64,000 nt of DNA from a virus, in the IMG/VR virus record IMGVR_UViG_3300020457_000004, positions 1 to 64,000 of that record; one strand, 5' to 3'. The notes under the pieces were generated by a model. That model saw nothing but the letters and a program-made list of their open reading frames with translations. It was not told the DNA's origin and did no database searches. Below are positions 2,531-32,193 of this stretch, piece after piece (position 1 is the stretch's first letter; every line of letters starts with the position of its first letter). The translations under genes were made by a program, and so were the position numbers.

Positions 2531-4660
2531 CTATTTTGCATGATTCATGAAGTCCTTATGACTTGCATGGGCCTGCGATTGCATTTTTTCTTTATCAGCG
2601 GGTTTGCTACTCATGTATTTATTCAAGAATTTAGCGGCGTGTGCTTTGGAAACTGTGTGATGTTTACCATCTTTGAATTGCACTTTTTTGCCTACTGATA
2701 TTGCCTTCCTCATTTGAGGTACGATATGTTCGATTTCTTTGGCGTTCTTCGCGTCTGATACTTTAGGTGCATCCTTCTTCAATGGTGCAAGACCTCTCTT
2801 GTCATCCGCTTTGAAGTCCCTAGCAGCATCTCTAAATGCTTTGTTCTCATTTACTGCATCGTGAGCGCCATCTACTTTGTTAAAGAATTTCTTCTTCTCT
2901 TCTGGTGACATATTAGCAAGAGATTTACCTGTCTTCTTCAACATAGAATTAAACTTTTCTTTGTAAGACATCTCAATAATTTCATTGAAATCTTCTACAC
3001 CATCAAACAAGTCCAACCACTCCTCTTTCATGTTCTCTTCGTTTGCTTTTCTTAATGCTTTAGAAGCAACAGGATGGTCGGATAAACCTTTCTTGATTTT
3101 CTCCATTGCCTTAGCAGCACCTGTCATGTTACCACCTTTGTATCTCTTATCAAACGCGATACCTTTAGCCTGTCTAAGTTCCTTGTCGGTGTAGTTGTTT
3201 TTAAGAACTGATTGATATCCCTCTGCCATTTCGATATCCATTGCATCTAACTCTGGTAGTCCTTCTAGTTCTTCCTTGAGTTTTGCGTTGGCTTTGGTAA
3301 CCGCCTTGTCCATTTGTTTACTTATGGACTTGAGGGTTTTCTTACCCTTAGCATCCGCGTGTGCCTGATAGATGTCAAGAGTATTCTTAGCGACACCCTC
3401 TTTCATGAGTTCATCATGGTTCTTTTTAGCATATGCGTTTGCTTCTTTTTCAGTTTCAAAAGTTGCGACTTTTTTACCTTTCATGTTATACACACAAAAC
3501 TTGTTATCGCCTTCTTTTTTAACATGACTAGTAGGATTCATATTGTGTTCTTTGTCGGGATTATACCCATCACCCTTTTCTGCTTTCATCATGCCATACG
3601 CTTCTTTCATGCCTGGGTCAGTTTCTTTTTCTTCTCTGCCCTTCTTATCAGAAAGTCTTTTAGCTTTTTTCTCTGCCTTTAGTCTTTCCTCTTCGGACTG
3701 CCTAGTAGCCATGTCTTTGAATTTTCCTTCAGCCATGGCTTTTGCTTGAGCGAAAGGATTTTTTGTCCAATCAATATCCATTTTTTGTTCCCCTTGATTA
3801 ACTTCATCCGTCATGAAACCTTTCATAGGCCCTTTCTGGATGGTGTTCTTTTTGATTATATTTGATAACTTGTCGCGTTTCTCTGCACTCTTTTTCTTTG
3901 CTCTTTCTTTAGCAGCAGCCGCGTCTTTGTTTGAAATTCTAAATCCGCCAGTATTGTGTGATGCTTTATCACTTGACATTGCACCGTACTCGTCTAGTTG
4001 TTCTTCTTCTTGCACACCTTTAGGTCTTAATTTATTCTTTGCCTTCATTTTTTGTTTTATTTTGGCGGTGTCTTCTGGAGATTTTTCTGGGGGTCTGTTA
4101 AATTCATTACCATTATCGGAATCCAGAATTTTTTTAGACATGATTGAACCATACTCGTCCAATTGCTCTTCGCTCATGAGGTCATCGTGATTCTTTTTAG
4201 CATACTCATTTGCTTCTTTTTCTGTCTCAAAAGTAGCAACTTTCTTACCTTTAGTATTGTATACGCAGAACTTGTTGTCACCTTCTTTCTTGACATGACT
4301 AGTAGGATCCATATTATGTTTATTATCAGAATCAGAATCGTTACCCTTTTCTTCTTCTTCTGTTTGATATCTTTTCTGTTGTACAGAAGTTCTTGCTCTA
4401 TTGAACACAGTATCGTCACCCAATACGATGAACATCATACCGTTCAATAGTGTATTGACCGCGTTTCTTTCATTCGGCGCAGGCACTTTACCTTGGTTGA
4501 ATTTATCTAAACCGCGTTTTAAAATGGGTAATTGTGATGCAGGCATTAGTCCCTGTCTCACTAACATATCAAGGCGTCTTGACATATCTGCTTCTAATAA
4601 GGGAAAGCTTTCTCCTTGTGTAAGAACTTCCCTAATTACTCTATCTAGTCTGCTGGACAT
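2531..4660 (-). CDS. Large K/E-rich modular protein, probable capsid-internal polyprotein
   Basis: 709 aa; late promoter at 4695; repeated EEQLDE and L-x-E sites; duplicated 48-aa module. Confidence 0.6.
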   Translation of the reverse strand: MSSRLDRVIREVLTQGESFPLLEADMSRRLDMLVRQGLMPASQLPILKRGLDKFNQGKVPAPNERNAVNTLLNGMMFIVLGDDTVFNRARTSVQQKRYQTEEEEKGNDSDSDNKHNMDPTSHVKKEGDNKFCVYNTKGKKVATFETEKEANEYAKKNHDDLMSEEQLDEYGSIMSKKILDSDNGNEFNRPPEKSPEDTAKIKQKMKAKNKLRPKGVQEEEQLDEYGAMSSDKASHNTGGFRISNKDAAAAKERAKKKSAEKRDKLSNIIKKNTIQKGPMKGFMTDEVNQGEQKMDIDWTKNPFAQAKAMAEGKFKDMATRQSEEERLKAEKKAKRLSDKKGREEKETDPGMKEAYGMMKAEKGDGYNPDKEHNMNPTSHVKKEGDNKFCVYNMKGKKVATFETEKEANAYAKKNHDELMKEGVAKNTLDIYQAHADAKGKKTLKSISKQMDKAVTKANAKLKEELEGLPELDAMDIEMAEGYQSVLKNNYTDKELRQAKGIAFDKRYKGGNMTGAAKAMEKIKKGLSDHPVASKALRKANEENMKEEWLDLFDGVEDFNEIIEMSYKEKFNSMLKKTGKSLANMSPEEKKKFFNKVDGAHDAVNENKAFRDAARDFKADDKRGLAPLKKDAPKVSDAKNAKEIEHIVPQMRKAISVGKKVQFKDGKHHTVSKAHAAKFLNKYMSSKPADKEKMQSQAHASHKDFMNHAK
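3404..3547 (-). repeat. Copy 2 of 144-bp internal repeat (HNMNPTSHVKKEGDNKFCVYN...NHDELM)
   Basis: Near-identical at protein level to 4175-4318. Confidence 0.9.
4175..4318 (-). repeat. Copy 1 of 144-bp internal repeat (HNMDPTSHVKKEGDNKFCVYN...NHDDLM)
   Basis: Near-identical at protein level to 3404-3547. Confidence 0.9.
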
Positions 4661-14008: not shown

Positions 14009-14371
14009 CTACCGTAAGTACTGAGGGCCAGTCCATCTTACCCAACCAGTTCCTTTGCCTTCCATCATGGCAAACACATTGCCTCTAGGTTTGTTCCTAG
14101 CGGGGGCAGCCCAACCAGCGGGTTTTAAAACATCACCCTTTTGAAATAATTTATCATTGTCACCCTTGACAATGAATCCCCAAACTGAATTGTCTGAAAT
14201 AATCTTGATGTATTTCTGACCTTCTTTGACAACCAGTTTATCAGCGAACTCAGCAATGCGAGCATCTCGCCTCTCTTCTCCGCCAAAATCATTGACTTCA
14301 AAAGAACGAGTAGACCACCTCGCGTAGTCTTCGTTGATTAAGGTTAGTAGGTTTTCGATTTCTTTTTGCAT
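14009..14371 (-). CDS. Conserved hypothetical early protein
   Basis: KYIKI...SVWGFI...GDVLKPAGWAAPARNKPRGNV motif; start set at MQKE after the GA-rich leader. Confidence 0.65.
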   Translation of the reverse strand: MQKEIENLLTLINEDYARWSTRSFEVNDFGGEERRDARIAEFADKLVVKEGQKYIKIISDNSVWGFIVKGDNDKLFQKGDVLKPAGWAAPARNKPRGNVFAMMEGKGTGWVRWTGPQYLR

Positions 14372-14398
14372 ATTTTCTCTCACTTCTCTCATTTATAC

Positions 14399-14483
14399 GA
14401 TCATGATCCCATATTTTGACCCAAATGTCAAGGGCCAAAGCGAAAAAAAGTGAAATTAAATATCCTTCTAAATCAACAACTTA
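14399..14483 (-). promoter_or_regulatory. Early promoter A: IHF-like site, TTGACA-17-GATCAT with extended TG
   Basis: -35 at 14431-14426, -10 at 14408-14403, AATCAACAACTTA at 14471-14483. Confidence 0.7.
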
Positions 14484-22426: not shown

Positions 22427-22843
22427 TTATCGTTTTCGCCCGATATTGTATTTCGTAACGAGCGTCCATTCATCCTTCTCTTTGAAGGACAAAATCTTTA
22501 TCTGACTCATAGGAGCCACTTCTTCTTCAATAGATTCATCAAGAAGCTTAACTAGACCCCAATCACTTAACAATTTAGCAATTGCGTTTCGTCTTTTTAA
22601 ATCGTTCTCAGTCAAGTCTGCTTCTTTACCATCTAAAGCAAAAAGTTCCTTGAAGTGAGTTATAAAATACCTACCTTGTTTATGGAGAATATGGCAAGAC
22701 TGATACAATGTCCTGTCCTTTTTAGATGCCACCCCAATACGCGACAAAGTTTCCCTAACCTTTAAAAAATCATCCTCTTTTTCTAAAACTATTTCTACTG
22801 GTTTGTAGTCGGGGAAATCAATGTCAAAAAAATCATCCACCAT
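22427..22843 (-). CDS. regA: Translational repressor RegA
   Basis: DDFLKVRETLSRIG, LYQSCHILHKQGRY, HFKELFALDG. Confidence 0.97.
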   Translation of the reverse strand: MVDDFFDIDFPDYKPVEIVLEKEDDFLKVRETLSRIGVASKKDRTLYQSCHILHKQGRYFITHFKELFALDGKEADLTENDLKRRNAIAKLLSDWGLVKLLDESIEEEVAPMSQIKILSFKEKDEWTLVTKYNIGRKR

Positions 22844-22894: not shown

Positions 22895-23338
22895 CTATTT
22901 TCCACCCTTCTTCAATAAGCCTTTTATCGCCTCGATATCTGCCTCACTCAATAATCTGAGTGCTTCTTGGGCCCGAACATTACTGTAACCAAAATATTCT
23001 TTTACAATTTCTAGATGTTCTTCTTTCTCTGGTTTTAACCACTTGTTAAATCTTTTTTTCTTACGAACAAAACCACGCAAAAAATCATACTGCATTTTTG
23101 CATCCAAGTGTGGTCTAGAATTCATTTCATTAGATGCCACAACCGTATCGATTCCATGAGACAATGACTTGTTCACGATAAAAGGATTGTATTGTTTCTC
23201 AGACCAATCATCTACAATCAAATTTTCTTTGGTGTAGTTGATACTGTTAGCAAAGTCAAAAGGACTAATTGCTTTTTTCTTTACCTTGAACTCTTCAGCA
23301 TCATAGGTCTTTACTGGTTCACCTAATCCTTCAATCAT
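22895..23338 (-). CDS. 62: Clamp loader small subunit gp62
   Basis: YNPFIVNKSLS, RKKKRFNKW, VKEYFGYS; synteny. Confidence 0.92.
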   Translation of the reverse strand: MIEGLGEPVKTYDAEEFKVKKKAISPFDFANSINYTKENLIVDDWSEKQYNPFIVNKSLSHGIDTVVASNEMNSRPHLDAKMQYDFLRGFVRKKKRFNKWLKPEKEEHLEIVKEYFGYSNVRAQEALRLLSEADIEAIKGLLKKGGK

Positions 23339-26614: not shown

Positions 26615-26779
26615 TTATTTCTCCTTCAACTTTTCTTTGTCATGTGCTAACCAATTGTATATTTTTTTGGTTACCCATAACTGAAATCTTCTTATAAAAT
26701 TACCTCTAGGCATTAACCAGCCGGCCATGAAAGATAATATCATTCCATAAACGGCAATCATTCCTTCAACCCAAGCCAT
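26615..26779 (-). CDS. 54-aa membrane protein (not in ORF track)
   Basis: MAWVEGMIAVYGMILSFMAGWL...; TAATG coupling to gp45; ends directly before the prx ATG. Confidence 0.55.
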   Translation of the reverse strand: MAWVEGMIAVYGMILSFMAGWLMPRGNFIRRFQLWVTKKIYNWLAHDKEKLKEK

Positions 26780-27429
26780 TAAATATTTGAACTCGGTTCT
26801 AGTGCCAAGAAATAGGTTCTCTTCGCGTTAGAAAATTTGAATACTTTCTTCTGGGAAACAGTAACCTCATAATCATCCGCGATTACTTTTAGGTTTTCAA
26901 TTCCTAGTCTAGCATCAAACTCTACATTAGCATTACCAATGTCGGTAGTGAATGAATTACTCTTAGGAGTATTCGGGTCACCCACACTAAGAACTACATT
27001 GCCACCATTGGCGACAACACTAAGAGTAGGAGCAGAGATTACACTCGCTGCCCTGTAGATAGTGTTGAGTTGTTCTTTGGTAATATTGAATTGATAGAAA
27101 GCATCAATTTCAATTTCTTTATCTGGAGCTGCCACGATAATAGATGGTTCCGCGTAATAAAACTTGAACCTTCCAGCATCGGACTTACATGTCAGATAAT
27201 CATCGGAAAAATCAATCTCAGTATCCTCACTCATTGTGACCAAAGATAGAAATTGATTTAAGTCATAGATTGCGAACTCCTGTGGGAAGCTCTCTTCGAT
27301 TGTGCCCTTTGCAAAAATAGACTTAGAAGCGGACACAGTTGATAAACTACTACCAGACTTAACCAATAAATTGGTATTAATCGTAGCAAAGTTTTTCAAC
27401 AACTCCAAAGTACTTTTGGATAGTTTCAT
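26779..27429 (-). CDS. 45: Sliding clamp gp45
   Basis: MKLSKSTLELLKNFATIN, FAIYDLNQFL, YFLALE. Confidence 0.96.
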   Translation of the reverse strand: MKLSKSTLELLKNFATINTNLLVKSGSSLSTVSASKSIFAKGTIEESFPQEFAIYDLNQFLSLVTMSEDTEIDFSDDYLTCKSDAGRFKFYYAEPSIIVAAPDKEIEIDAFYQFNITKEQLNTIYRAASVISAPTLSVVANGGNVVLSVGDPNTPKSNSFTTDIGNANVEFDARLGIENLKVIADDYEVTVSQKKVFKFSNAKRTYFLALEPSSNI

Positions 27430-27496
27430 AATATACCTCAATCAAATTAAACATCATATACTAACATTTGTTAGGGGCAAATGTCAACCCCATTTT

Positions 27497-27847
27497 TTAT
27501 ACTTCGCCAGTAGTAATCTCTTCTGTCATACCATTAGCAGTCAAGTAATCTTTATAAGAAGTCTCTGATAAGTGACCAGTTCCATTGTAAGGTGCAGCCG
27601 CAAATAAGGCATCCCTGTCCACTATATACGCATTGTAAGCGTCTTCATCAGCGAAATCTAAATCCCATTTAAAAGAAAGATTGTCTTCAGCAATAGTCAA
27701 TGTTACTGTAACATCTGACCTCGCGTCAAGCCAATTCCTAAAATGTGTACCGTTTGTCTCGAAATCAGAACTAGCGTCCTCGGCAAAAAAATACCAATTG
27801 GCTGAAGTATCTGGTCGAGTACTTGTATAAGTTAATCTATATGCCAT
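27497..27847 (-). CDS. Hypothetical late protein
   Basis: 116 aa; late promoter at 27880-27887; AGAGGA SD. Confidence 0.55.
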   Translation of the reverse strand: MAYRLTYTSTRPDTSANWYFFAEDASSDFETNGTHFRNWLDARSDVTVTLTIAEDNLSFKWDLDFADEDAYNAYIVDRDALFAAAPYNGTGHLSETSYKDYLTANGMTEEITTGEV

Positions 27848-27879
27848 TGTTCATTCCTCTAATAAAATTCTTACTCTCT

Positions 27880-27887
27880 TATTTATA
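27880..27887 (-). promoter_or_regulatory. T4-type late promoter TATAAATA
   Basis: Exact consensus. Confidence 0.75.
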
Positions 27888-27889
27888 AT

Positions 27890-27967
27890 AAAAGTGTCGG
27901 GAACTTGATACTTCTTGTGAGAGAGTAAGAGAGAGGCGTACCAAGTCCCGACTGCCCGCTGGGGGCA
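27890..27967 (-). ncRNA. Candidate structured RNA: 15-bp hairpin with 26-nt CU-rich loop plus small 5' hairpin
   Basis: GUCGGGACUUGGUAC pairs with GUAUCAAGUUCCCGAC (one bulge; G-U pair only on the minus strand); followed by ACUUUU. Confidence 0.55.
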
Positions 27968-27972
27968 AACTG

Positions 27973-28338
27973 TTAAAAGGGTATATCGTCTTCAGCTGAA
28001 GTCTCTTCAGCGATATGTCCCTCAAACTGTGCGTACTGGCGAACTTGCTCACTCTCTGCTTCTTGCTCACCAATGTCATGTACATGCAATGCGATAATAG
28101 CATAGTGCAGTACCTTTAATAAATCTTTACGGTTAGTACCGTCTTTTTTTCCATACCTCTGGGCATACTTCAAAATGTTTCCAATACAAAATCCCATCCC
28201 ATGACCACCGTCAATAATAAATTCGGTTGCCTGATATTTGTTCTGGGAATAATGTTGCCCATAAGTTTCATCTATATAAGATTGGAGCTCTTGAATAAGA
28301 GCCCCTTCATTATATTTGTAGTCTGGACTAGAAGTCAT
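27973..28338 (-). CDS. DUF3310-like protein
   Basis: TYGQHYS, GFCIGNILKYAQRYGKK, DLLKVLHY; start MTSS at 28338. Confidence 0.8.
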   Translation of the reverse strand: MTSSPDYKYNEGALIQELQSYIDETYGQHYSQNKYQATEFIIDGGHGMGFCIGNILKYAQRYGKKDGTNRKDLLKVLHYAIIALHVHDIGEQEAESEQVRQYAQFEGHIAEETSAEDDIPF

Positions 28339-29566
28339 AACTATCATTCTCCTCAGCAGCAGCTTTTTCACCTTCTTCGGCAGGACTGTCCATGATATCT
28401 TCAACCGTGGCACCAGCATCCACCTTAGTGTAAAGGTCAATGAAGGCAGACTTAGTGTCGGTATCAAACCTATTGACACACAACTGAATTGCCTTGAGTC
28501 TATCAGAGAACATGGCGTATGCCTTGACAATGTGTTCCAACCTTCTAGTGGAAACCAACTCATCGATTCCACCTTCGTAGAAAGTCTTTCTGATTATGTC
28601 AGCCCACATGACCAACTTGTCAGCAAAGTCTTCATCGACACACTCAGCAACACCCATTTTGTTCATGACAATTTTCTTCTCTTGAACACTAGAAGGATAT
28701 TCCTGTTCAACCGTGATAGCGAACCTTTCTAGGAACGCCTCATCCAGAACTTGAGCACCCATGAACTTACCGTCATCGGAACCTCTACCTTTTGTATTCG
28801 CGGTAGCAATCACATTGAAACCTTTAGCAGGCGTGACAACCTCACCAGACTTCTTATTGAAGTAAGGTTTCCCTTCAAGGATTGCCTGAAGGCACATCAA
28901 CTTGTTAGAACCCCTATCAATCTCATCCAGAATGAGAATCGCACCTCTCTTCATGGCAGTCAGCACAGGGCCTTCCCTGTAAACCACATTACCATCTACG
29001 AGAGTGTTACCACCAATCAAGTCATCCTCATCGGTTTCGATAGAGATGTTAACCCTAATGGCTTCTTTCTTGAGTTTGGCGCAAACCTGTTCCACCATCA
29101 TAGTCTTACCGTTACCAGAAAGACCACAAATGAAAGTCGGATAGAACATACCAGACTTGATGATGTTCACCAAATCTTTATGAAACCCAAATGGGACATA
29201 AGTACTATCTGAATCTGGAATTAAATTCTCGATTTCCACCGCAAGTTTAGCCTGTTTTACAATCTTGGCATCCAATGATTGAGACTGAATTGTCTCAATT
29301 GGTTCCAAGGTAGATACCGACTCTTCAAGGGCAGGCGCCTCAGCGGCGACAGGTTTGAGAGCAGTATTACCTACAGTCATTAGAGTTGCCATGTTTGGCG
29401 AAAATTGGTTCCTACCAACTTTACACTCTTTGAAAAACCACATGGGATTTTTCAGTCCATTCGATTTTGCAATCTGCATTGCCTCCGCCTTGGAGAACAC
29501 AGCAGACGCGGAATTGTTCACATCGGCAAGGGCCTGAAGGAACTGTTCTTTCTGTTTTACACTCAT
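28328..29566 (-). CDS. CobS-like/MoxR AAA+ ATPase
   Basis: GLSGNGKT, ILDEID, TANTKG, LDEAFLERF, STRRL. Confidence 0.92.
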   Translation of the reverse strand: MSVKQKEQFLQALADVNNSASAVFSKAEAMQIAKSNGLKNPMWFFKECKVGRNQFSPNMATLMTVGNTALKPVAAEAPALEESVSTLEPIETIQSQSLDAKIVKQAKLAVEIENLIPDSDSTYVPFGFHKDLVNIIKSGMFYPTFICGLSGNGKTMMVEQVCAKLKKEAIRVNISIETDEDDLIGGNTLVDGNVVYREGPVLTAMKRGAILILDEIDRGSNKLMCLQAILEGKPYFNKKSGEVVTPAKGFNVIATANTKGRGSDDGKFMGAQVLDEAFLERFAITVEQEYPSSVQEKKIVMNKMGVAECVDEDFADKLVMWADIIRKTFYEGGIDELVSTRRLEHIVKAYAMFSDRLKAIQLCVNRFDTDTKSAFIDLYTKVDAGATVEDIMDSPAEEGEKAAAEENDSYDF

Positions 29567-29596
29567 AATTTACCTCTCACTTTTTCTCAATTACTT

Positions 29597-29681
29597 GATC
29601 ATGATCCCATATTTGGGGGCAGAAGTCAAGGGCCAAAATGAATTTTTTTTCATTTTCTTTCCCTGTAAAATCAACCACTTA
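29597..29681 (-). promoter_or_regulatory. Early promoter B: IHF-like site, TTGACT-17-GATCAT
   Basis: -35 at 29629-29624, -10 at 29606-29601, AATCAACCACTTA at 29669-29681. Confidence 0.7.
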
Positions 29682-32108
29682 CGCGACCTCATCAATAAAT
29701 CTGTTCAAGAACTGTCTGGAATTGGACTTGCCTTTCTGGAAATTCTTGAACCCTCTCAAAATGTCAGCCTTCTTATCAGACTTGACTTCAAACTCTGCCT
29801 CTTCATTAAGAGACTTAGCACCTTTCAGAATGAAAGTAGCATCACTTCCCAACCTAGACTCGCAAGCCATGAAGTTATTGTTTTTCCAATTAGTTGACTT
29901 TTCTTTATCAAAGTTTTCATCATACTCGGCATACTGACCTGTCATATCAGTCCATGCCTGTCTCGCTTCTCTAATGTTGTTATCAACTAGGAAGAAGTGA
30001 ACTATTCTGGAACCGACAAACTTTTTGTAGTAGTCGAAAGTAACAGCAGTAGCACTTTCATAAGAGACCCTACCGTAGTTTGTTCCATACATTCCCTTGA
30101 TGTTAGTGGTGACTGACAAACCGTTGCCTTTCAATTGGAACTTACCAATCTCGGTTCTCTCTTCACCGTATCCATAACCAAACTCTTTTGAGATGGCATT
30201 TTCATATCTGAACCTACCACTCTCTTCATACTTACCTTCAGAGATTACTTCCAAGTCAGAAGTGTTTCCACCATCGGAAAGAACAATTGTATTCATAACT
30301 TCAATTCTGTTTCTTTCTTTGAACTCTTTAGCAATCTTAGCACCAACTATCATACAACTTGACAGCGGAGTAGAACCAAGATAAAGATGGTAAGGAACAT
30401 TATATCTTTCCAGCCTTGGTTTCATATCTCTCCACTCAAATGAAGTTTTGTAACCAAGTAACTTTTTGAAACATCTATTGTACTCACTCTGAGGCAATTC
30501 AGAAGATATCAACTGAAGCAATCCGAAACCACCAGACTCAATAAACAACTCACCATCATTAGCAGATTGGAAAGCAGAAGCCCTAGAGGCATTCCCGAAC
30601 TTCTCACTCTGGAGTGAGTTAGCACAGTTTGAAAAACCGTACACATCAAATGGGATACCAACTTTTTTACAGAAGGCAACTTGAATTAGTGTCTGTTCAA
30701 TAGTACCAGCCATGTGTCTACCCATTGAACCAGAGAAGTCTACAAACATCATCATGCCATGGTTCTGACCATCTGGCACAGTAGTACTTGATAGGAACAA
30801 GTCTTCAGTCAACTTGTATGCCCACAACTTATCTTCATTCAACTTACCAGTTTTGTTGACTTGAGCCTTCCTCAATAGGGTGGCTTTTTTCTTCATCTCA
30901 AACTGCATGACTAGTTGATTAATTGAACCCTTGTTTCTTTGCATGAATTCATCAAGCAAAGTTTTCTCTACATCCTTAGCAGAACCAGCAGGAATGTCAT
31001 CATACCTTCCACCGCAAACATACTCAAAATCTTGAGCAGGCCAAACATCGGTAGTTGGGAAAATAAAGTACTTAGACTTGAACTTAGGCATAGTAGCAGT
31101 AACAACACCATTGGTCTTGCCAGATTCTACTAGGTTTTGTTCAGCATCTCTAAACGCTTCATCGGTAAATGACTTAGGTTCCGCGTCATCAAACTCATAT
31201 GGATTAGCACCATCAGTATTATCAGAACCTTCCATGATATCGCCATCTTCTGGGTCACCAGACTCAGAAGAATCTTCAGTATTTTTTGACTCTTCTCTAG
31301 AAGGAGTAGTATCTTCAGTCTCTTCTTCAGTCTCTTCACCTTCACCAGACTCAGAACCACTCTCTTCACCTTCTTCAGTTTCTTCACCAGACTCGGACTC
31401 GCCTTCACCTTCATTCTCATCCGATTCTTGTTCACCGTATGGTGATTCTGACCATTCGCCATTCTCATCTTGAGCGAAGTCATCTTCATCTTCATCTTCA
31501 CCGAACTGGGGCATACCCATTTGTTCATCTAAAAGATCTTGCATCGCGTCTTCAGTCTTAGAGAAGTCATACAACTCCTCAGCAATGGCGACAACCTCAT
31601 CCCAAGTCTCAGCAGCGAAACACTTGTCAAGCATGACCTGTTCCTCAGCGGTGAATTGTAGAGTAAGGAAAGCACCAACCTTAGCGTGAAGATTGATTCT
31701 ATCAATTAGTGGTAATTCTTGGGGAGTCTTTTGTAATTTTGAAAGACCGAAAAAGTCTTTCTTGTAAAGCATTTGATATCCTTTATAGAATGACTTGACC
31801 AAGCCTGGATATCTGATTTTAACTAGTCTCTCATTCCTAACATCTTCTACAACATTCAAGAATGATTTGAAATTTGCACCCTTACTAGAAGAGGCAGAGT
31901 GCCAACCTTCAGCGGGAGTTACGAGAGCGTGACCAACTTCATGACCAATCAATAAATCATACAAGAAATCAGGCATGTCCTTCCAATTGGGAAGTACAAT
32001 TTTCCTAGACTTCAAATCGAAGTACGCGGTAGGTACATTCCTATGTTCAATCGAAACATCCTCAGTAGCGAGGAGTTTCGCAAGGTATGATTTAGAAGTT
32101 ATGTCCAT
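29679..32108 (-). CDS. Metallopeptidase-motif plus VWA protein (partner of the AAA ATPase)
   Basis: HEVGH and NVVEDVR; acidic linker; MIDAS DFSGS...TP...LSDG. Confidence 0.85.
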   Translation of the reverse strand: MDITSKSYLAKLLATEDVSIEHRNVPTAYFDLKSRKIVLPNWKDMPDFLYDLLIGHEVGHALVTPAEGWHSASSSKGANFKSFLNVVEDVRNERLVKIRYPGLVKSFYKGYQMLYKKDFFGLSKLQKTPQELPLIDRINLHAKVGAFLTLQFTAEEQVMLDKCFAAETWDEVVAIAEELYDFSKTEDAMQDLLDEQMGMPQFGEDEDEDDFAQDENGEWSESPYGEQESDENEGEGESESGEETEEGEESGSESGEGEETEEETEDTTPSREESKNTEDSSESGDPEDGDIMEGSDNTDGANPYEFDDAEPKSFTDEAFRDAEQNLVESGKTNGVVTATMPKFKSKYFIFPTTDVWPAQDFEYVCGGRYDDIPAGSAKDVEKTLLDEFMQRNKGSINQLVMQFEMKKKATLLRKAQVNKTGKLNEDKLWAYKLTEDLFLSSTTVPDGQNHGMMMFVDFSGSMGRHMAGTIEQTLIQVAFCKKVGIPFDVYGFSNCANSLQSEKFGNASRASAFQSANDGELFIESGGFGLLQLISSELPQSEYNRCFKKLLGYKTSFEWRDMKPRLERYNVPYHLYLGSTPLSSCMIVGAKIAKEFKERNRIEVMNTIVLSDGGNTSDLEVISEGKYEESGRFRYENAISKEFGYGYGEERTEIGKFQLKGNGLSVTTNIKGMYGTNYGRVSYESATAVTFDYYKKFVGSRIVHFFLVDNNIREARQAWTDMTGQYAEYDENFDKEKSTNWKNNNFMACESRLGSDATFILKGAKSLNEEAEFEVKSDKKADILRGFKNFQKGKSNSRQFLNRFIDEVA

Positions 32109-32135
32109 ATGTCTCTCACTCTCAATTACAGTACT

Positions 32136-32193
32136 ATGATCGCATATCCCATAGCAGATGTCAAGTAAAAGCTGCCTCTCTAAGTCATTGATT
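32136..32193 (-). promoter_or_regulatory. Early promoter C: inverted IHF-like site, TTGACA-17-GATCAT
   Basis: -35 at 32164-32159, -10 at 32141-32136, AATCAATGACTTA at 32193-32181. Confidence 0.7.

Follow-up and report, generated by a model that had tools for sequence, protein, structure and literature searches.

The window, i.e. the whole stretch of DNA analysed here, is the first 64 kb of a 137,116-bp IMG/VR virus record (G000; completeness estimate 83%), and its source is an uncultured marine T4-like myovirus. On the minus strand, which carries all the genes and motifs located below unless otherwise stated, the window encodes an 809-aa protein (29679-32108), followed by a CobS-like AAA ATPase (28328-29566) and by a DUF3310 protein (27973..28347; stop codon TAA at 27975-27973), the last gene of an early operon. 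Downstream of this stop codon come two tandem hairpins, a T4-type late promoter, a 116-aa open reading frame (ORF) hereafter called the MAYR ORF (27497..27847, ATG at 27847) and the gp45 sliding-clamp gene (26779-27441). The element formed by the two hairpins, the second of which bears a large pyrimidine loop, is a conserved structured RNA, and this hairpin with its pyrimidine loop probably controls translation, judging from its complementarity to nearby leaders. The MAYR ORF is presumed to be a late gene controlled by the element.

Hairpin 1 is short (GCCC / CCAGC / GGGC, 4 bp; 27966-27954). Hairpin 2 (27896..27952) has a 15-bp stem (5' arm 27952-27938, 3' arm 27911-27896) with one bulged U and one G-U pair, a calculated folding free energy (dG) of -20.7 kcal/mol and a CU-rich loop of 26 nt, GCCUCUCUCUUACUCUCUCACAAGAA (27937-27912), which is a near pyrimidine mirror repeat with a mean predicted probability of being unpaired, P(unpaired), of 0.86. 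A 15-bp stem with a CU loop after the AAA-DUF3310 operon had been proposed in a sequence-only reading of this DNA, and its coordinates are borne out on the minus strand. The stem is followed by a U-rich tail, ACUUUUAUUA (27895-27886), by the T4-type late promoter box TATAAATA (27887-27880), as read from the sequence, by a GA-rich site called site 1, AGAGAGUAAGA (27879-27869), and by AGAGG, the Shine-Dalgarno (SD) sequence of the MAYR ORF (27860-27856). Site 1 is an 11-nt perfect complement of loop nt 8-18, and in the optimal duplex, which is bipartite, the SD is paired to loop nt 2-6. A 136-nt stretch with the element folds at -37.2 kcal/mol (z = -3.83), and none of 200 shuffled sequences folds as well. 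Hairpin 2 has the stem and the U-run of a Rho-independent terminator, and the opposite strand has no T-run at the hairpin. It does not have the short loop of such terminators, since its loop measures 20-27 nt across lineages versus 3-8 nt in a typical terminator; a consensus terminator scan, which admits only 3-8-nt loops, consequently omits it. A crude scan of G000 yielded 233 terminator-like hairpins, and none of the others has so large an apical loop.

The element is a new RNA motif, absent from Rfam and restricted to a single locus in one clade of uncultured marine T4-like phages. Rfam 15 gave 0 matches at the gathering threshold on the 64-kb window, and between 27700 and 28100 six weak matches were obtained (E >= 1.1), the best at 18.2 bits versus a gathering threshold of 61.7 (E 1.2). 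Literature searches turned up no description of the element, which does not prove that it is undescribed. By a protein-anchored search, the element was recovered at the corresponding position, next to DUF3310 on its downstream side, in 16 close loci, and it is absent from more distant relatives in which gp45 lies directly after DUF3310. A DNA pattern (loop core, gap and TATAAATA) run over IMG/VR retrieved 42 stretches, 39 of them with the element; these 39 loci correspond to 24 distinct sequences, including the window, and to 9 lineages, and the conservation of TATAAATA in the loci derived from the pattern is by construction, as the pattern required that box. A covariance model built from the window lineage recovered the remaining lineages, found exactly one copy per genome in G000, G006 (complete, 165.6 kb), G007 and G008, and gave no match in L019, L020, L022, L023, L026 and L059. 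The relatives examined that have no MAYR ORF also have no hairpin, and in L019 and L020 gp45 directly follows DUF3310. A collection scan with the bare loop core gave at least 120 matches; among those listed, 9 were the element and the rest were mostly unrelated low-complexity sequences. The covariance model, applied to 99 other loop-core loci, detected no convincing hairpin (3 weak matches, E 0.066-0.69), and a second pattern, designed for diverged loops, returned 38 stretches, of which 35 were known and 3 unrelated, and no new element loci.

In a model-based alignment, compensatory changes are present at 19 of the 19 stem pairs and 99.2% of the cells are paired, namely 4/4 pairs and 95.9% of the cells for hairpin 1 across lineages, and 15/15 pairs and 100% of the cells for hairpin 2. 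The stem covariation seen is reached by none of 500 shuffles and no slid register comes near it, these figures being read with the caveat that a model-based alignment is itself fitted to the structure. An unstructured alignment (MAFFT and RNAalifold), in which the stems were misaligned and only 6 loop-site 1 pairs were recovered, is given little weight. The stems of the lineages have no common sequence (e.g. GTCGGGACTTGGTAC, CGGGGCAGGCGG, CCGGACACTGGTGG, GACCCTCGGGGCT), and the loop is near-identical in the 9 lineages, being CCUCUCUC(U)(U/C)ACUCUCUCUCAA-like throughout. Across lineages, the dG of the hairpin ranges from -20 to -27.6 kcal/mol and the predicted P(unpaired) of the loop from 0.81 to 1.00, and 5-8 T are present in the first 9 nt past the stem in 20 of 20 distinct sequences. 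The sequence-only reading is supported in placing a structured RNA in the 3' untranslated region (UTR) of the AAA-DUF3310 operon, and this RNA is conserved, its loop included. Furthermore, G-U pairs occur, for example, at three stem pairs, in 6, 4 and 3 distinct sequences; on the opposite strand they would turn into A-C mismatches, which assigns the structure to the minus-strand RNA. Taken together, the stem covariation, the G-U pairs and the U-run after the stem point to an intrinsic terminator with an unusually large, almost invariant loop.

In 7 lineages the loop is a near-perfect homopyrimidine mirror repeat (CTCTCTC-A-CTCTCTC), located directly upstream of the late promoter. Such a (CT)n mirror repeat, combined with the inverted repeat of the stem, could act at the DNA level, by forming H-DNA or a cruciform affecting the late promoter, replication or recombination, but the stem G-U pairs argue for a minus-strand RNA and the U-run is found on one side only, so that a DNA-level action appears most improbable.

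Among the 11 distinct sequences of the window lineage, the 24-nt loop core, site 1 and the SD are invariant (11/11); these 11 sequences show 6 variants of the 7-9-nt spacer that separates site 1 from the SD, 4 of the U-run and 4 of the spacer between the SD and the ATG. This pattern speaks for selection on site 1. It also bears on an explanation according to which the hairpin is a plain terminator, its loop and the GA complements of this loop being functionless low-complexity drift. Such an explanation is in line with the fact that, genome-wide, GA-rich coding stretches equal the leaders in their pairing with the loop, and that shuffled CU loops give similar results in most lineages (see below). 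It is nevertheless quite improbable, because the loop and site 1 stay the same through a complete replacement of stems, spacers and promoter -10 boxes, and because a 20-27-nt loop, the largest of the 233 candidates, is atypical and costly in a terminator.

The most specific partner of the loop lies in the leader of the MAYR ORF and consists of site 1 along with the SD. Indeed, (i) a GAGAG run follows only 1 of the 29 TATAAATA sites of the genome, which is this one, (ii) the optimal duplex between the loop and the MAYR leader is predicted to be bipartite, site 1 being paired to the 3' half of the loop and the SD to its 5' half, and to cover 5-7 nt of the SD zone in 7 of the 9 lineages, and (iii) the net energy of this duplex, once the opening of the leader has been subtracted, is -11 to -19 kcal/mol. 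The sole sequence-specific match is that of the loop motif UCUUAC with GUAAGA in site 1; across lineages, the centre of the loop and site 1 (UUAC:GUAA versus UCAC:GUGA) agree in 2 + 2 lineages and disagree in 1, and 4 are uninformative. In the window lineage, dinucleotide-shuffled loops reach the energy observed with the MAYR leader in only 2 of 1000 cases, and in the comparison by lineage none of 500 does so in the window lineage or in L185. The downstream site, which pairs with the loop over 11 perfect bp, had been taken in the sequence-only reading for a cis decoy; the perfect pairing holds, and the site is invariant and sequence-specific, but, along with the SD of the MAYR ORF, it makes more sense as the principal target in cis.

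On these grounds the favoured explanation, held tentatively and with a confidence somewhat short of even, is that the element is a Rho-independent terminator of the early CobS-like AAA/DUF3310 operon whose loop would also silence the downstream late gene on read-through RNA. In brief, the two tandem hairpins would end the operon, and the second would display a 20-27-nt single-stranded CU loop resembling an anti-Shine-Dalgarno sequence. Both termination and read-through at the hairpin are putative. On the read-through RNA, the two CUCUC halves of the loop would pair with site 1 and with the SD of the next gene, and this loop-leader pairing would produce a pseudoknot hiding the ribosome-binding site. 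The late promoter TATAAATA is located between the loop and the leader. Transcripts initiated at this promoter, the start of which we take, from T4 biology, to lie a few nt after TATAAATA, would lack the loop and most of site 1 and would thus be translated, so that the 116-aa ORF would be made only late. The SD of the late gene is accordingly predicted to be complementary to an upstream segment that late transcripts lack, as expected of a structure sequestering a translation-initiation region (TIR). The same loop could also pair with the GA leaders of its own operon, as a secondary role. The cis pairing, the read-through and the translational effect are what we infer here from the observed structure, conservation, terminator-like anatomy and complementarity.

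Several points weigh against this explanation. The optimal duplex does not reach the SD in L149 and L198, and the distance from site 1 to the SD downstream of it is about 9-20 nt, so that sequestration needs a weaker second helix of 5-7 bp. The duplex energies of the MAYR leader with the loop of its own lineage and with those of other lineages are close (-18.0 versus -16.9 kcal/mol), and in the other 7 of the 9 lineages 36 to 406 of 500 shuffled loops match the observed energy. Moreover, if termination is efficient, there would be hardly any read-through RNA to be silenced, and the favoured explanation does not account for the leaders of two early genes (B and C, described hereafter) being the best-matching 5'UTRs in G006, G007 and G008.

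Four GA leaders are present in G000: leader A (UGAGAGAAGUGAGAGA; 14376..14391) in front of a gene coding for a 120-aa protein, leader B (UUGAGAAAAAGUGAGAGG; 29573..29590) in front of the CobS-like AAA gene and after a TTGACT-17-GATCAT promoter, leader C (GAGAGUGAGAGA; 32112..32123) in front of the 809-aa gene, and a fourth one, leader E, outside the window (G000:136286). Their promoters (14399-14432, 29597-29630 and 32136-32165 in the window, and G000:136250-136286) are homologous to one another and constitute a subclass in which TTGAC(A/T)-17-GATCAT is followed by a GA leader. The loop had been described as antisense to the leaders of all three early promoters, a description that is too broad: only promoters A, B, C and E, the GATCAT-type subclass, are followed by GA leaders, and the genome contains many other sigma70-like promoters, at least 9 of which are without them. 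The leaders of nine other promoters and that of gp45 pair with the loop at +1.2 to -12.7 kcal/mol. The operon's own leaders, B and C, carry two purine boxes (UGAGAG...GUGAGAG), the second of which is the SD, and the MAYR leader is likewise composed of site 1 and an SD. The individual pairings were reproduced with RNAduplex, with 15 bp and one bulge for leader A (-21.8 kcal/mol), 12 contiguous bp including one G-U for leader C (-20.1 kcal/mol) and 14 bp in three segments for leader B (-19.5 kcal/mol), and in all three cases the duplex covers the SD, as had been claimed.

The specificity of these pairings is less clear-cut. When both strands of the 137-kb genome are scanned for duplexes, GA-rich coding stretches prove to be equally good partners of the loop; leader A is 7th in rank, leader C and the downstream site are at about the 24th-25th place, and leader B is not among the top 30 collapsed sites. 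As the pairings were not unique at the scale of the genome, the ranking was restricted to 5'UTRs. In G000, the targets of the loop then rank 3rd-6th of 149 5'UTRs (MAYR leader 3rd, leader C 4th, leader B 5th). The corresponding ranks are 1st for leader B, 2nd for leader C and 11th for the MAYR leader among the 193 5'UTRs of G006, 1st, 4th and 8th among the 78 of G007, and, among the 62 of G008, 1st for leader B and 2nd for the MAYR leader, leader C not being called. The exposed CU loop is thus complementary to GA-rich TIRs, with leaders B and C among the best 5'UTRs in these four genomes. Dinucleotide-shuffled leaders reach the energies observed for the early leaders in 0-5 of 1000 cases; dinucleotide-shuffled loops do so, in the window lineage, in 47 (A), 25 (B), 43 (C) and 96 (E) of 1000 cases and, outside the window lineage, in up to 335 of 500. 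The own and cross-lineage duplex energies are about equal (-21.5 versus -21.0 kcal/mol for leader B, -18.2 versus -17.8 kcal/mol for leader C), and the covariation of loop and leaders that the sequence-only reading had suggested looking for in relatives is not seen. The 5'UTR ranks are high, and dinucleotide-shuffled CU loops are about as good as the real loop in 7 of the 9 lineages. From the own/cross comparison and the shuffles, the complementarity is that of two conserved low-complexity classes, a CU repeat and a GA repeat, and not that of a co-varying helix.

A regulation of the early leaders themselves, proposed in the sequence-only reading as negative feedback by a 3'-UTR-derived RNA of 60-80 nt, can be extended as follows. 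The terminated ~85-nt 3' end of the operon mRNA (hairpins 1 and 2 and the U tail) would limit the translation of genes A, B, C and E, either as a stable small RNA (sRNA) acting in trans or, as soon as this end has been synthesized, through fold-back of the mRNA onto its own 5' leader. The high ranks of leaders B and C among 5'UTRs, the SD-covering duplexes of -19.5 to -21.8 kcal/mol and their rarity with shuffled leaders are consistent with this possibility, and the loop is far better conserved than any one of its partners, as would be the case for a multi-target seed. The two GC-rich 3' hairpins would also be expected to protect such a fragment. A precedent exists in the OxyS-fhlA pair, in which a terminator loop kisses a TIR (cited in PMC11979758). 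Set against this are the lack of loop-leader covariation, the performance of the shuffled loops, the fact that GA leaders of the AAA gene are also present in relatives devoid of the hairpin (clearly in L022, in part in L059) and the invariance of site 1, which this possibility leaves unexplained. Of the traits of an sRNA, a conserved and accessible seed is found, and neither complementarity beyond composition nor co-variation with targets is. The presence of at least 9 other early-type promoters with non-GA leaders argues against a general early shut-off. Overall, a regulation of the early leaders is plausible but less likely than the silencing in cis, and somewhat more likely than the other alternatives presented here.

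The absence of measurable co-variation with any RNA partner, in a loop that is conserved, would also be compatible with a loop that determines RNA stability or binds a protein, of host or phage origin, recognizing a pyrimidine tract on a terminator, the complementarity of the loop to GA leaders being incidental. The phage encodes at least one RNA-binding translational regulator, as a homologue of the RegA translational repressor (22427-22843; PF01818, E 5e-45) is present in the T4-like position after gp62, and it thus also has a protein route to repress early translation. In T4, however, RegA sites are A/U-rich, and none of the candidate proteins is known to prefer CU repeats. The terminator loops of SdsR, RseX and ArrS are reported to act without direct target pairing (PMC11979758). 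Since the invariant GA site 1, located 45 nt downstream in every lineage, would be left unexplained, a protein-binding or stabilizing loop is considered unlikely. Finally, a composite of several of these roles can be conceived, in which the terminator loop would be the anti-SD seed of a small regulon: once its 3' end is complete, the operon mRNA would fold back on its own GA leader, a nuclease-resistant ~85-nt fragment would then accumulate and shut off A, B, C and E in trans, and read-through RNA of the late neighbour would be silenced as well. As a pyrimidine mirror repeat, the loop might even clamp a GAGAG strand as a triplex. This composite is doubtful.

RNA libraries were also considered. 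Of the 16 metatranscriptome runs listed, 11 are recorded as RNA, and no run contains as much as half of the words sampled. Contigs from 4 marine runs of one study cover the gp45, DUF3310, AAA and 809-aa genes of relatives, and one low-depth contig of a relative crosses the hairpin (27804-27987), a kind of data that cannot show RNA ends, strand or level. None of the contigs of those 4 runs lies on 27436-27803. The contig data as a whole are neutral for every model.

The mechanism is most likely a variation on a known kind, either a terminator combined with TIR sequestration or a 3'-UTR regulator. Regarding the former, TIR-sequestering structures of early transcripts are described for the T4 genes e, soc, 49 and I-TevI in section 29 of the review of Uzan & Miller (2010, PMC3014915). 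As in these genes, going by that section, a late gene lies downstream of earlier transcription, a segment confined to the long early transcripts can pair with the SD region, and the TATAAATA late promoter is placed in such a way that late transcripts lack the inhibitory strand. Unlike in these genes as they are presented there, the inhibitory strand would be the apical loop of a terminator, leading to a pseudoknot or kissing interaction instead of a simple stem, the predicted pairing is bipartite (site 1 and SD), and the late promoter is located between the partners and not within the 5' strand. According to the same review, T4 had yielded no characterized small RNA of the 3'-UTR-derived kind.

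Like 3'-UTR-derived sRNAs and OxyS, the element is an mRNA 3' end with a terminator hairpin and a U tail, and it has a conserved exposed sequence complementary to ribosome-binding regions. CpxQ is one of these 3'UTR-derived sRNAs. The element differs from them in that its putative seed is in a 26-nt terminator loop, that it belongs to a lytic T4-like phage and that it is known from sequence alone. The possible fold-back onto the 5' leader recalls the fbi element of the hok mRNA, the 3' end of which is complementary to its own 5' translation region and could close and silence the full-length mRNA; hok is, however, a plasmid toxin-antitoxin system activated by 3' processing, with no sequence relationship to the element, and the fold-back is here only a possibility. 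C-rich or CU-rich loops also pair with SD sequences in the staphylococcal RNAIII and Rsa RNAs, which share with the element a pyrimidine-rich hairpin loop as anti-SD mimic but are dedicated sRNAs with short loops, from unrelated organisms and with unrelated sequences. The PeSLs (promoter-early stem-loop cassettes) of T4-like phages are described as multi-copy units composed of a terminator and an early promoter (PMC2839356, PMC4122927). Judging from these descriptions, the repeated homologous promoter/leader cassettes A, B, C and E resemble such mobile regulatory cassettes, and the hairpin likewise stands at the boundary of a gene module, but it occurs once per genome, its loop is large and conserved, and the promoter after it is a late one, so that it does not have the composition of a PeSL.

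What is known of post-transcriptional timing in T4-like phages comes mainly from coliphage T4, with the proteins RegA and RegB and local hairpins hiding ribosome-binding sites. In a widespread clade of uncultured marine T4-like phages, another device has persisted despite the complete turnover of the sequence around it, namely a terminator that exposes a long loop of anti-SD type, for which leaders nearby have matching purine boxes. If the silencing of the late gene in cis is real, the gene-e paradigm would be extended to a pseudoknot built on a terminator; if the loop acts in trans or through fold-back, the phage would encode an RNA regulator of early translation, and the RNA of the regulon, if it exists, would be the first regulatory RNA acting by base pairing to be described in a lytic T4-like phage, with a terminator loop as seed. 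The motif can be tested with simple reporters, although phage and host are both uncultured.

Regarding the genomic context, synteny is kept in four genomes, in which early promoter C, a gene coding for a 765-809-aa protein, early promoter B, the AAA gene and the DUF3310 gene are followed by the two hairpins, the late promoter, the MAYR ORF, another early promoter and gp45. The MAYR ORF is present after the hairpin in all lineages; it matches no Pfam or PHROG family and nothing in the phages collection, and only hypothetical viral clusters in the Atlas. A sigma70-like early promoter proper to gp45 is located right after the MAYR stop codon (27442-27496) in every lineage examined (also in L140, L149, L178, L185 and L198), which makes the MAYR ORF a lone late gene between two early units. 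In G006 (L244 region), a second small ORF of 122 aa, beginning with MYKLEYVLKRPTLST, overlaps the end of the MAYR ORF and precedes gp45; it may be a tandem paralogue. The best match of gp45 has 42.5% identity, with a marine single-cell-derived virus record and cyanomyophages, and its identity to the nearest cultured or named relatives is only ~40%. Other genes encoded near the element include the gp44 and gp62 clamp loader genes (gp62, clamp-loader A subunit, at 22895-23338) and genes for a Mom-like protein and a peroxiredoxin.

In the early operon, the DUF3310 protein was assigned to Pfam PF11753 (E 8.9e-11) and its translation has MIVMTSSPDYKYNEG. Its start is likely the ATG at 28347 and not the GTG at 28572. 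Indeed, the DUF3310 match begins near residue 76-105 of the 199-aa ORF starting with GTG (27973-28572) and the relatives of this protein are 94-103 aa long and overlap the AAA gene, so that the 199-aa ORF is probably too long; from the ATG at 28347, the overlap with the end of the AAA gene is ~18 nt. The 809-aa protein had been labelled VWA in the sequence-only reading, a label that neither Pfam nor NCBIfam reproduces: it only matches PHROG 459 ('peptidase', E 4.7e-168), with no Pfam match even at E up to 10 and no NCBIfam match. For the genes A and E, no informative protein family was found. An in-frame ATG is present inside the GA leader of gene A (ATGAGAGAAGTGAGAGAAAATATG, 14369-14392); as this upstream codon is ATT in G001 and G002, the ATG at 14371 is likely the start.

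The GA-leader promoters share a GATCAT -10 box in place of TATAAT, and those of A, B and E have a palindrome, GATCATGATC, holding two GATC sites. The close relatives G001 and G002 keep 6 and 4 GATCAT-type promoters, respectively. This cassette family may consist of methylation-sensitive promoters or of PeSL-like mobile cassettes. Another early-type promoter, at G000:127594-127611, has CCTCTCTCAC in its spacer (GTGAGAGAGGAAGTCAAG on the plus strand), which is probably coincidental low complexity. No tRNA genes were detected in the 64-kb window. A 183-nt direct repeat with 80% identity, the two copies of which (3403-3585 and 4174-4356) are 771 nt apart, is present inside a coding region.

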